Below, piece after piece: positions 17,500 through 23,247 of a stretch of DNA of 64,000 nucleotides (its first letter is position 1; each line of letters begins with the position of its first letter). This DNA comes from Allosphingosinicella sp. (GTDB lineage Bacteria > Pseudomonadota > Alphaproteobacteria > Sphingomonadales > Sphingomonadaceae). The notes below the pieces were generated by a model, which did not search any database, had not been told where the DNA came from, and saw only the letters and a list, made by a program, of their open reading frames with translations. The stretch lies in assembly GCA_036386295.1 (NCBI GenBank), contig DASVVX010000006.1, forward strand, positions 1,431 through 65,430, in the 5' to 3' direction. The position numbers and the translations under genes were made by a program.

Positions 17500-19206
17500 A
17501 TGAGGCCGTATATTGCGTCGAATACGGTGGGGGGCGGGCCGTTGCGGCTGTTTCTTTTGTCGATTTTGGCGTTCGCGCTTGCCTGCTGCGCTACACGCGA
17601 AGTGGGAACGGTTCGAGGCCTCGGCCTCGCCGACCCGCCAGTGGACGAGGAAGGCAGCGCGAGCCGCGGCCCCTGTGTGCGGCCGAAGGTCGTTTTCGTC
17701 ACCATCGACGGCACGGCCGACACCCCGGTTGCCCGAACCGCCGCCGCGCGGCTGCATGAGATGGTTGAGGCCTATGCCTACACCGGGCCGGGAAGTCCGT
17801 TGGCCGTCTGGTACGCCGAAGGGGTTGGCAGCGTCGGTCACGACATCGCGGGGAAGGTGCTCGGCGTCGGCGTCAACGAGGACATCAAGAAGGCCTATGC
17901 CTTCCTCACGCGCGTCTGGCAGCCGTGCGACCGGCTGTTTCTCAACGGCTTCAGCCGAGGCGCCTACAGCATCCGGGCCCTCGGCGGCCTGCTGTACATG
18001 GCCGGCATACCGGACCTCAGCGGAATGTCCCAGCGCGAGCGCGACGCGATCGTCGATCGACTCTTCGATGCTTATAAGACCCGCACCGCCTATCCGGGCC
18101 CGGAGGGCCTTGCGAGGCGGCGCGCCCAGCGCATCGCGGCCGTCTACGCGCGCCTTCCCCGCAAGGTGTCGGCCGATCCCGACCGCAAGGCCGGATTCGG
18201 CCATCCCGGCACCAAGGTCGCGATCGAAGCGATCACCGTCTGGGACACCGTACATGCGATCGGCCTGCCGGACGGTTCGGAAGATCCCCTCGAAGGCCCG
18301 GCCTATTTCCTCCTTACGGCGTGCAACGCCAGGGCCATCTTCCAGCCGCTCGCCCTCGACGACAACCGCGCCTACAGCTTCACTCCGATCCTCGCCGGCG
18401 GCGACCAGGCCACTCAAGCCTGCCGGGGACGGCCCGACCGGCAAAACGTCAGCGAGACGATCGAGGAAGTGTGGTTCAGCGGCGCCCATGCCGATGTCGG
18501 CGGGACCTACAGCGCCGGCGCGATGCTCGACGGCGAGCTGGCGTCGGTAAGCCTCAATTGGGTGCTCGACCGGCTGCGCAGCCCGAAATGTCCCGGCTGC
18601 GGAGAGGCACTTGCGTTGCCGGCGAAGCTGAGAGTCCCGGAAAACCGCCTGACCGCCGTTCACGACGGGAAGCGGACCAGCATCGGTTACCGCAAGCTCT
18701 ACCTCCAGTCGCGCAAGCCCTCCGTCTATTGGTACAGGGTTTATGGCCCGGGAAAACCCGTCGCCGTTCACGCCAGCGTCTTCCAGCGATTCGACCACCT
18801 CTTCCAACTGGATCGTCGCACGGCCGGCTGCAGGGGCACCCTCGCTCCCGGCAAGCCGGTGCTCTGCGCCCGGCAAATCGCTTCGCACGGCCTGATACCC
18901 GAGCTGCTCAAGGGGATCCCCGATCCGCTGGACGGGCGCGAACGCCCATGCCTTGAAGTCTCCGACTGGGGCTATCGGCTCAAGGCAGATCAAAAATGCG
19001 TCGATCCGGTCGGCGACTCCGCGGAATCGGAGCCGGCCAAGGCCCCTGCCTGCCCGGACACCGGCCAATCGTTCGACGGGATGGTGTACACGGGCCATAT
19101 CAAAGACGCCGCCGAGTCTCTCGCCCACGACAAGTTCGTCACGCGTGAACCTTTTGCCATCCTTTATCCGCGGTGCGAGACAGCGGAAGCATCGCCCCCG
19201 CGCTAG
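17500..19206 (+). CDS. DUF2235 (Tle1-like alpha/beta hydrolase) domain protein, probably exported, Cys-rich
   Basis: IDGT, Y.EGVG, GFSRGA, VWDTV and EVWFSGAHADVGG motifs; hydrophobic N-terminus ending LACC; start uncertain. Confidence 0.85.
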   Translation: MRPYIASNTVGGGPLRLFLLSILAFALACCATREVGTVRGLGLADPPVDEEGSASRGPCVRPKVVFVTIDGTADTPVARTAAARLHEMVEAYAYTGPGSPLAVWYAEGVGSVGHDIAGKVLGVGVNEDIKKAYAFLTRVWQPCDRLFLNGFSRGAYSIRALGGLLYMAGIPDLSGMSQRERDAIVDRLFDAYKTRTAYPGPEGLARRRAQRIAAVYARLPRKVSADPDRKAGFGHPGTKVAIEAITVWDTVHAIGLPDGSEDPLEGPAYFLLTACNARAIFQPLALDDNRAYSFTPILAGGDQATQACRGRPDRQNVSETIEEVWFSGAHADVGGTYSAGAMLDGELASVSLNWVLDRLRSPKCPGCGEALALPAKLRVPENRLTAVHDGKRTSIGYRKLYLQSRKPSVYWYRVYGPGKPVAVHASVFQRFDHLFQLDRRTAGCRGTLAPGKPVLCARQIASHGLIPELLKGIPDPLDGRERPCLEVSDWGYRLKADQKCVDPVGDSAESEPAKAPACPDTGQSFDGMVYTGHIKDAAESLAHDKFVTREPFAILYPRCETAEASPPR

Positions 19207-20663: not shown

Positions 20664-21597
20664 AGAGCGGCCGGGGGACTCTCGGCCTCCCGGTCTCGCA
20701 CTCCAGCGCGGGGCGGTCCCACTCCGCGAGATTGGCCGCGGCCAGGTAGCTGCTCTCGAGAAAGGCCATTAGCGCCTTGTCCGGATCGTCCGCCGACCGA
20801 ACCGCCTCGTAGGGGAGGACGAACTCGCCGAGCGCCTCGTCCCAACGCGCCGCCTTCGGCCCGACCGGCGCCCGGGCGAAGCCCTCCGGCGAGGGATAAG
20901 CGTAGGAATAGAAGAAGGGATCGCCGCCGCCCGCCGCTCCGCCGGGCCAGAAGCCGGCGCTCGAGACTTCGTGGCTGTAGGCCTCGCGGGTGACGGCGTC
21001 GGGCAGGTTGGGGATTCCGCCGGGGTGGAGCGGCGCGGGGCGGCCCGAGAAGCGGGTGACGGCCAGATCGAAGCTGCCCCAGAAGAAATGGACCGGGCTC
21101 GCCTTGCCGAGGAAGCCCGAACGGAACAGGTTGAGGACCCGGTCGGCGCCGACCAGGGCCTCAAGCAGGCGGCCGGCGCTGTCGCGGTCGTAGGCGCGCG
21201 GCGCCTCGTCGACGGCGAAGGGGATGGCGGGATCGATCTCGTTGGGCGAGGGATGGATCCGGACCTGGTGCCCGGCGGCCTCGAGCAGCCCCGTCACCTC
21301 GGCGTGGAACTGGGCGACCGTCATCGGGCCGAGCGGCACCCGGCGCTCCCCGGCGGAGTCGGCGAAGAGGAAGTCGTGGGCGGCAAGGTCGAGGCCGAGC
21401 TCGAACGTCCCGCCCGGCCCGTGCAGCGGCTCGGTCCTCAGCCCGCGCGGGCAGACCCGGAGGGTGACGTGCCAGCCGTGGTTGCGCCAGGGCAGGAGCG
21501 CGACGGCCGCCTTGCCGAGGATCTGGCTGTAGAGGTGGAGCGCGGCGACGGTCGGGCCGTCGCGGGCTTCGGAGAGTTCGGGCCAGGCATTCCGCAT
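20662..21597 (-). CDS. DUF5996-family protein
   Basis: W.NHGWHV, FLGKASPVHFFWGSFDLAVTRFSGR and EAYSHEVSSAGFWPG motifs. Confidence 0.85.
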   Translation of the reverse strand: MRNAWPELSEARDGPTVAALHLYSQILGKAAVALLPWRNHGWHVTLRVCPRGLRTEPLHGPGGTFELGLDLAAHDFLFADSAGERRVPLGPMTVAQFHAEVTGLLEAAGHQVRIHPSPNEIDPAIPFAVDEAPRAYDRDSAGRLLEALVGADRVLNLFRSGFLGKASPVHFFWGSFDLAVTRFSGRPAPLHPGGIPNLPDAVTREAYSHEVSSAGFWPGGAAGGGDPFFYSYAYPSPEGFARAPVGPKAARWDEALGEFVLPYEAVRSADDPDKALMAFLESSYLAAANLAEWDRPALECETGRPRVPRPL

Positions 21598-21653
21598 TTC
21601 CGCTTTGCCTCTGCAGCTTCTTAAGTAGCCCATATTTGGCTAGGATCGTGGTT

Positions 21654-21797
21654 ATGGCAACGGACACTCCCAATCGTCCCAGAGAGCCGGCACCCGTGGA
21701 TGACCGTTTGAAACACGCTGTCGAACGTCAGAAGGAGCTCCGCCGCCTGCGCGGAATCGGATGGGTCGGCGATCTCGACGCGATGCGAGCGGACTAG
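21654..21797 (+). CDS. 47-aa ORF resembling the C-terminal half of a VapB-type antitoxin (not in the ORF track)
   Basis: Hand translation [47 protein letters not shown]; the LRG..W.GDLD.MR tail is typical of VapB antitoxins; AGGA upstream. Confidence 0.65.
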
Positions 21798-21808
21798 CAC
21801 AAACCGGC

Positions 21809-21840
21809 ACCCTTCCTTTGCGGGGAAGGGTTTCATTGTT
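21809..21840 (+). terminator. Terminator-like hairpin between the VapB-like ORF and pheS
   Basis: acccttcc-tttgcgg-ggaagggt followed by ttcattgtt. Confidence 0.5.
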
Positions 21841-21898
21841 CCGTCAACCTCGTTTAGAGCGGCGGACATGCCTTACCTCCTGTCGGTCCTACCCTGAG

Positions 21899-23140
21899 AT
21901 GCCAGTCACCCTTACACATGCCGATGTGTTGAGCCCGGAACTCAACAAGGCGCTGTTGGCATCTATGATGCAGCTCGCCGCGACGGGAAATGCGCCCACT
22001 CTGGGTGTGCTTGAAAATTGGCTTCATGACGTCTTGTCTCGCATCGATTCCTGCCGCGAAATGGCGACATTGGAGAAAATCCGGGTCGATTCCCTTGGCA
22101 AGCTTGGAATCCTTACATCGCTTCTAAAATCGCTTGGTAGATTGCCGCCTGAGTTGCGATCAATCATCAGCCCTGAACTAAACAAGGCGAAGGACGAACT
22201 CGCGGACGCGATCGCCGGGCGCAAGGCGCTGCTGGAAGCTGAGGCGCTCGAGCGGCGGCTGGCCGCCGAGGGGCTCGACATGACCCTTCCGGTGGCGGCG
22301 CCCGCGCAGGGCAGCGTCCACCCGGTCAGCCAGGTGCTCGACGAGCTCGCCGAGATCTTCGCCGACCTCGGCTTCTCGGTCGCGACCGGGCCGGAGATCG
22401 AGGACGACTGGCACAATTTCACCGCTCTCAATTTCCCGCCGGACCATCCGGCGAGGGCGATGCACGACACATTTTATCTTCGTCATCCCGGCGCAAGCCG
22501 GGACCCAGGCACGCCGGACTCCGAGGTCTTGGGTCCCGGCCTTCGCCGGGATGACGGCGGGGGGGCGATGCTGCTGCGAACCCACACCTCGCCGGTGCAG
22601 ATCCGGACGATGCAGTCGCAGGAGCCGCCGATCTACATCATCGCGCCCGGGCGCACCTACCGGTCGGACAACGACTCCACCCACACGCCGATGTTCCACC
22701 AGATCGAGGGGCTGGTGATCGACCGCGGGATCCATCTCGGCCACCTCAAATGGACTCTCGAGACCTTCCTCAAGGCCTTCTTCGAGCGCGACGACATCGT
22801 GCTGAGGCTCCGCCCCTCCTATTTCCCGTTCACCGAGCCCTCGGCCGAGGTCGACGTCGGCTTCACCCGGGTGAACGGCCGCCGGGTGCTCGGCGGGAGC
22901 GAGGGATGGATGGAGCTGCTCGGCTCCGGCATGGTCCATCCCCGGGTGATCGCCGCCTGCGGGCTCGATCCGGAAATCTGGCAGGGCTTCGCCTTCGGGG
23001 TCGGAATCGACCGGCTGGCGATGCTCAAATACGGAATGGACGACCTTCGCGCCTTCTTCGACGGCGATCTGCGGTGGCTGAGGCACTACGGCTTCGCCGC
23101 GCTCGACGTGCCGACTCTGAGCGGGGGGGTCGGGGCATGA
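21899..23140 (+). CDS. pheS: Phenylalanine--tRNA ligase alpha subunit with atypical N-terminus and internal repeat insertion
   Basis: [39 protein letters not shown] and GFAFG.GIDRL motifs; start uncertain (21899 or 21965). Confidence 0.96.
22481..22556. repeat. Family A palindromic element inserted in frame within pheS
   Basis: cgtcatcccggcgcaagccgggaccca ... tgggtcccggccttcgccgggatgacg; encodes [25 protein letters not shown]. Confidence 0.95.
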
Positions 23141-23247
23141 GGGTGAACGTCACCCCAGCGAAAGCTGGGGTCCATGCGGGGCCGGAGCTCGTCGTGGAGT
23201 CAGCATGGATGCCAGCCTGCGCTGGCATGACGGGGGGAGCGACATGA
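23137..23247 (+). other. Repeat-derived 36-aa mini-ORF bridging pheS and pheT
   Basis: ATG overlaps pheS stop (ATGA 23137-23140); TGA overlaps pheT start (ATGA 23244-23247). Confidence 0.55.
23148..23232. repeat. Family A palindromic element between pheS and pheT
   Basis: cgtcaccccagcgaaagctggggtccatgc ... gcatggatgccagcctgcgctggcatgacg. Confidence 0.92.

Follow-up and report, generated by a model that had tools for sequence, protein, structure and literature searches.

A foreign tRNA-binding front module common to four otherwise separate pheS lineages

The pheS gene at 21899-23140 of the window, by which we mean the whole 64,000-nucleotide stretch of DNA that was analysed, encodes a PheS of 413 residues and is followed by pheT. 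Its front is a foreign module of about 101 codons that is common to four otherwise separate pheS lineages. We regard this module as a real horizontal graft (probability about 0.9), one that has been transferred repeatedly and that replaces a domain-sized front part of an essential synthetase. An entire functional domain has thereby moved as a unit between species and genera, in a translation enzyme that is essential and as a rule inherited vertically. The window, which by its protein sequences we assign to a sphingomonad-type alphaproteobacterium, sits on contig C6 of a 3.1-Mb assembly with 208 contigs, 87% completeness and 69% GC; its features around pheS are collected in Table 1.

Table 1. 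Features in and around pheS, in window coordinates
Feature	Position	Strand	Basis or remark
47-codon ORF, C-terminal half like VapB antitoxin tails	21654..21797	+	53% identity to residues 25-62 of G161 VapB
Terminator-like hairpin just 5' of the pheS promoter, where G161 has vapC	21809..21831	+	Consensus scan only; alignment
Host-type pheS promoter	21832..21860	+	-35 (21832-21837) and -10 (21855-21860) both predicted, 17 nt apart
ATG of the ancestral pheS and the 9-codon ORF that it now begins	21868..21897	+	Left edge of foreign piece at 21870/21871
N-terminal extension, residues 1-35	21899..22003	+	Met in the same column in 4/4 carriers; predicted extra helix 13-29
First SPELNKA copy	21932..21952	+	Predicted start of extra helix
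Foreign tRNA-binding helical arm (Pfam Phe_tRNA-synt_N), residues 36-103	22004..22207	+	Pfam; identity comparison
Second SPELNKA copy	22169..22189	+	Inside the long arm helix; contains N95
Right junction zone, foreign module to native pheS	22190..22207	+	DNA likeness, GC3, residue type
Native linker and catalytic core of pheS	22208..23140	+	Core 97.6% identical to G161
Palindromic repeat, in frame in a loop of the PheS core	22481..22556	.	27-nt arms, 93% complementary

A first-pass annotation of this DNA had proposed that the 5' end of pheS was replaced by low-GC sequence and extended, and the composition bears it out. Its counts of 30/60 GC at 22081-22140 and 46/60 at 22201-22260 are exact, and the abrupt in-frame switch that it placed near 22200 is real: the reading frame is kept, and the best change points in third-position GC (GC3) lie at 22181-22202, a result reached by 0 of 2000 permutations. 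GC3 is 0.594 in codons 1-101, 0.891 in codons 102-193 and 0.917 in codons 222-413. Over 21899-22200 the GC content is 158/302 (0.523), and only 32 of the 10,307 302-bp segments of the assembly are as low. The arms examined in the genus all have a GC3 between 0.74 and 0.99 (49/49); the arm here has 0.55. DNA likeness to the relatives ends near 21590 and is back at 22200-22219, and contigs of other organisms begin to fit at 22208.

The foreign front is nevertheless recognizably PheS, as the same annotation had held. The low-GC part scores above the Pfam cut-off as the tRNA-binding arm, so that the protein has the family's N-terminal helical arm and class II catalytic domain (PF02912 and PF01409, both above cut-off), then pheT; matches in the fold search are bacterial PheRS alpha chains. 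The claimed N-terminal extension of about 35 residues is also present, and among the genus genomes with a match it is peculiar to this one. Residues 1-108 find a match in 142 of 156 genus genomes, a tally that takes in up to three genomes flagged unpublished, and the other 141 are 29-47% identical and lack the extension without exception; the low-GC start is thus not common to the relatives. The foreign arm shares 22/65 residues with that of the closest relative, G161, and 43-54/65 with those of the other carriers, whereas the core groups with G161, G017 and G123. Separate trees of arm and core disagree in topology, and together with the survey of relatives and a single contig that spans the join, described below, this supports the suggestion that the tRNA-contacting arm was exchanged as a segment.

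Three metagenome proteins have the same extended arm (P0002, P0003 and P0156, respectively 81%, 63% and 66% identical over residues 1-108), and all begin at the same Met as this PheS. Identity among the carriers is 50-83% in the extension (residues 1-36), and they diverge by 17-42% over residues 1-101. All four have cores that we take to be of sphingomonad type, but not of one kind. The nearest normal-armed cores are those of G161 for this gene (97.6%), G166 for P0002 (98.4%) and G054 for P0003 (95.5%), and for P0156 they belong to genomes of other genera (about 91%). A 62-row core tree puts this gene, P0002 and P0003 in three places separated by starred branches, and monophyly of the four cores is rejected (p-AU 2.3e-5, delta lnL 132, in a set of 33 rows chosen around the carriers). 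In contrast, the arms of these three carriers form one long-branched clade outside the genus (SH-aLRT 99), in a 65-column tree built by a quick method, with P0156 left out and a long-branch warning attached.

In all four carriers the residues are of carrier type up to position 100 and of host type from 101-104. The P0156 arm matches those of the other carriers at 41-46/63 positions, while the arms of their nearest hosts match at only 32-34 of 59-63, indicating that the module crossed the genus line after the hosts had split. Trees alone do not separate gains of the module from losses; its rarity and its foreign composition point to gains. The module's DNA, its GC3 and its left edge are read in one carrier, and P0002, P0003 and P0156 are seen as proteins.

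These observations leave very little room for an assembly chimera, a mis-called start, or fast divergence in place after a local duplication, readings that are already largely refuted and to which we assign next to no weight. The genome is, to be sure, a 208-contig assembly, and one database entry, P0004, begins PheS at residue 55. However, a single Logan contig from run X1 covers 21300-22336 with zero differences, so that the assembly is not chimeric at about 22200. Since X1 is possibly the source of this very assembly, the contig excludes a mis-join but does not stand for an independent organism; runs that share little with the genome (X2-X6 and X14) do not cover the module. Against a mis-called start, the extension and first Met recur in three different proteins from other records, and divergence in place cannot set one arm on four separate cores. 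Gene calls do differ by source: P0005 starts at residue 1, with one core residue different. An ATG at 21761 was rejected as the pheS start, because it lies upstream of the conserved promoter and inside the vapB-like ORF. pheS often serves as a marker gene, and its 5' part can lead both phylogenies and gene prediction astray, as in the entry that lacks the first 54 residues.

The left edge of the module falls at the host's own start codon. In relatives the promoter block consists of a -35-like and a -10-like hexamer set 17 bases apart, with the ATG 6-8 bases after the second; here the block is in register and terminates in ATG 21868-21870, the old start codon. Among the 49 promoters compared, the best matches are G108 (30/35) and G161 (27/35). 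The frame that the old ATG opens is not that of pheS, and the stop of its 9-codon ORF lies one base before the new start at 21899. Among 20,000 random leaders, 550 and 1260 have such an abutting stop (3-6%), a comparison chosen after the pattern had been noticed. Across the genus, the ATG of pheS follows a -10, loosely defined, at a distance of 6-8 bases in 42 of 49 genes; a -10 of the narrower type TAGA[GC] is found in 30/49 and a purine run like a ribosome-binding site in 6/49. From the short distance and the scarcity of such runs, pheS looks leaderless in this genus. The transcript here is likely to be leaderless from 21868 as well. Ribosomes would then start at 21868, translate the nine codons, terminate, and reinitiate at 21899. 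Eight codons of this short ORF are foreign, and in the donor they may have ended a gene located in front of the module.

The module is predicted to add one helix to the PheS arm. An AlphaFold2 model, computed from a 136-row alignment in which only four rows inform the extension, has helices at residues 13-29, 33-51, 55-66, 71-81 and 84-123 and a mean pLDDT of 80; pLDDT is 75-82 for residues 11-40 and below 50 for residues 1-10. In M. tuberculosis PheRS, the portion of the structural report available describes an arm that bonds the D and T loops of the tRNA via R45, R56, D37, A57 and N64 (PMC8136816). R87 and N95 of the present enzyme align with R56 and N64, at an offset of 31 from the ungapped-length match; R87 occurs in 131 and N95 in 67 of 132 other rows, and both are kept in 4/4 carriers. 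R45 would map to L76 or, one position off, to K77.

Close to these residues the carriers have L/F69, L86, I/V90 and S91, and the L69, L86, I90 and S91 of this gene occur in 0, 1, 3 and 0 of the 132 other PheS rows. The extra helix would pack on the new hydrophobic residues L69, L86 and I90, next to the surface by which the tRNA elbow is held. The enzyme probably still charges tRNA-Phe, as we infer from its arm being the only copy in the assembly. It thus departs from the usual bacterial PheRS alpha chain in its 35-residue extension, the predicted extra helix, the odd residues at 69, 86, 90 and 91, and an in-frame palindrome in the core. The carriers of the module are natural variants with which to study what portion of the PheRS arm is exchangeable and how recognition of tRNA-Phe responds to an added helix.

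The first-pass annotation had also drawn attention to a duplicated SPELNKA, and the copies at 21932 and 22169 do match at 19/21 nucleotides with both differences synonymous. This match exceeds all of 1000 codon shuffles (best 17; none reaches 18/21), and the 7-residue repeat exceeds all of 2000 residue shuffles (best 5; none with 6). Among 62 natural PheS sequences, one other has a 6-residue repeat. The repeat holds at 5, 3 and 2 of 7 positions in the other three carriers and at 7/7 in this copy only, and nothing aligns beyond nine residues. S-P-E at the start of a helix is a common capping motif. The SPELNKA pair, a minor feature of the module, stems from an old duplication within the gene or from local conversion. 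It was rejected as an attachment site, since normal hosts have no such sequence at that place.

How the module reached its hosts is less certain than that it did. We favour, tentatively and at slightly under even odds, the reading that it is the relic of an integrative element that targets pheS and brings along a front end for it, the rest of the element having been deleted here. Such elements have precedents: an element that targets dusA supplies a new promoter and a 35-residue N-terminus, and SXT does likewise for prfC, according to the portion of the source available (10.1101/2021.06.18.448947). The elements at dusA and prfC insert in the gene and furnish its 5' end themselves, again as far as the available parts of the two reports go (10.1101/2021.06.18.448947; PMC2654960).

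Under this element reading, the module would evolve in a lower-GC mobile pool and come into use only on fusion to a host core; this would account for selection for PheS function, low GC3, and occurrence in grafts only. It would join the host where the long helix first becomes conserved (residues 100-104). Here a deletion would have brought the start codon of the host up against the 28 bases that precede the module's own start, removing the old arm along with the body of the element. This deletion must be assumed, since no element parts are left and the promoter is the host's. The reading draws on a single junction zone in different hosts, on a foreign in-frame 5' coding segment, and on the persistence of low GC3 although the carriers differ by 17-42%; an element of this sort would also carry its piece from one genus to another.

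The comparison with known elements is imperfect in several respects. The target here is an essential synthetase, unlike those of the dusA elements (IMEVchUSA3) and of the SXT/R391 ICEs at prfC. The 35 residues exchanged at dusA are of the same length as, and 61% identical to, those they replace, in the portion of that work available, whereas here about 66 host codons have become 101, a whole folded domain plus a helix. The features that accompany the dusA and prfC elements were sought and not found: a recombinase gene or element body beside the new 5' end (among tyrosine-family enzymes), a repeat of an attachment site flanking the module, an element-borne promoter in place of the host-type one, and a host remnant. 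The assembly has three tyrosine recombinases, none of them on C6; its single arm match, at 87% completeness, leaves no displaced host arm; and the 64-kb window has no low-GC island. Three tests of a 5'-restoring element thus failed, and the module is not classed as the scar of such an element, though it works like one. If an element does drive the swap, pheS is a new integration target, and the piece replaced is far larger than at dusA or prfC.

The absence of a recombinase, host remnant, attachment repeat and low-GC island counts against the element reading, and two of the remaining observations admit another explanation. A shared right edge is also expected if recombination in the host wears away all donor DNA that can be aligned, and a promoter nearer to G108 than to G161 fits a longer tract imported from another strain. 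The alternative, possible though clearly below even odds, is that the extended arm is a sub-gene homeoallele that entered once from a lower-GC donor and has since passed from strain to strain by recombination in conserved flanks, with the DUF5996 gene or promoter on the left, the pheS core on the right, and no dedicated element. Both edges indeed meet host-type sequence, the DUF5996-pheS-pheT synteny is intact, no element parts were found, and the promoter is closest to that of a more distant member of the genus.

Replacement of synthetase homeoalleles via flanking recombination is described in the accessible part of a study of such genes (PMC3191353). As with the homeoalleles of TyrRS, ThrRS and SerRS and of spirochaete PheRS in that same part (PMC3191353), the form is rare and divergent, patchy among kin, and set in an unchanged neighbourhood, the last point being established in this genome alone. 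Those homeoalleles are whole-gene forms, whereas here only the arm is divergent and the core is of host type. A long stay in GC-rich chromosomes should moreover have raised GC3, yet it is 0.59 in spite of the divergence among carriers; a genus crossing would need a left flank that differs between genera; and the donor lineage was not found. For these reasons we favour the element relic over recombination in the flanks.

Donors and further carriers were sought widely. In 400 genomes of the family, 20 matched at E<=1e-13 (best 3.5e-16; this gene, 5.9e-63), and none of the 20 matches reaches the first 23 positions. Searches of four other genera at E<=1e-17, in sets that held no known carrier, gave 0/51, 0/301, 0/401 (overlapping the 301), 0/3 and 0/121. 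No module turned up when metagenome, genome and viral contigs were scanned with sequence patterns, some of which would miss an arm of the P0156 type; three viral matches to the C-terminal pattern proved not to be PheS. The plasmids and phages searched have ordinary PheS arms only, with the module on no phage, plasmid or viral contig, and in the two phage records examined pheS adjoins host-type genes. The top match in a search of 1.8 billion proteins, P0006, was discarded as a repeat protein whose score is the sum of weak matches, and the other matches are ordinary arms of at most 51%. The protein searches returned no full-length donor with this arm on its own core; they rest on shared words, so more carriers may exist.

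PHROGs gave a match to a PheS-length family only, and Rfam none. In the Atlas, residues 1-105 matched only arm families, and residues 1-60 had no match at 0.9. The Atlas also contains a cluster of 75-residue stand-alone PheS-arm proteins whose most frequent phylum on record is tailed phages (a record exists for 6 members), and this cluster is a lead for mobile PheS arms. The literature searched, which covered few subscription journals, contains no report of a PheS extension of this kind or of an element integrating in pheS.

It has been suggested, in the first-pass annotation, that a toxin or phage drove diversification of the arm. This claim found no direct support: four carriers have one conserved arm, no toxin or defence gene adjoins, and vapC is absent. 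That the swap was kept as protection of PheRS, or of the tRNA elbow that it holds, from a toxin or phage protein is compatible with either route of entry, but we consider it unlikely. The changed residues L69, L86, I90 and S91 adjoin the tRNA-binding face, and vapBC occupies the slot upstream of pheS in G161, G149 and G106. Protection would however lead one to look for many different arms rather than one conserved, rare module, whose only carrier among the 142 matching genus genomes is this one; PheT has no swapped or divergent segment, and the literature searched describes no toxin or phage factor that has the PheS arm as its target. The order in G161, the closest relative, is DUF5996, vapB, vapC and a normal pheS; a vapC match is absent from the present assembly. 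The slot varies across the genus, so the loss of vapC is not tied to the arm swap. More speculative still, and in our view very improbable, is the idea that mobile elements swap the tRNA-binding domain of PheS for a toxin-resistant one of their own, such that excision restores the sensitive enzyme and kills the cell. If true, this would be addiction through target replacement instead of through an antitoxin.

The slot upstream of pheS takes up varied cargo, to judge from the sequences compared. The VapB-like ORF in this genome has a different N-terminal half from its G161 counterpart and matches no Pfam family (the G161 proteins match VapB_antitoxin and PIN). A contig from run X2 covers 21551-21743 with 22 differences, and a relative may share the ORF. 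In genome G011 (locus L002) the DUF5996-pheS slot contains 1.4 kb of 58%-GC DNA with two small genes, one of which looks by eye like an aspartyl protease. Two pheS copies each in G009 (L121, L122) and G131 (L123, L124) were considered as integration scars and rejected; each copy has its own syntenic surroundings, and bin contamination is likely.

The palindrome in the core is a separate event, as it is found in relatives with normal arms. About 106 loci in the assembly are related to it, and 10 of 62 PheS sequences have a loop of at least 31 residues (31-56) at its site, some with two copies. It resembles protein-coding palindromic repeats in being dispersed, in frame and in a surface loop, and we take it to be comparable to the Rickettsia RPE type. 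A further palindrome lies between pheS and pheT, at 23148-23232.

No tRNA-Phe gene was found in the 87%-complete assembly, and an ARAGORN call on contig C189 is unlike the gene of the relatives. On contig C147 of G000 (L135) the last 20 bases of tRNA-Phe, at 1964-1983, stand beside a lower-GC stretch with a 558-codon ORF, and this site is likely the end of an island inserted at tRNA-Phe. Elsewhere in the window, a gene at 17500-19206 with a Tle1-like phospholipase domain (PF09994) lies between an XRE regulator and a GNAT gene and is without a counterpart in the matching syntenic regions of G161, G123 and G145.
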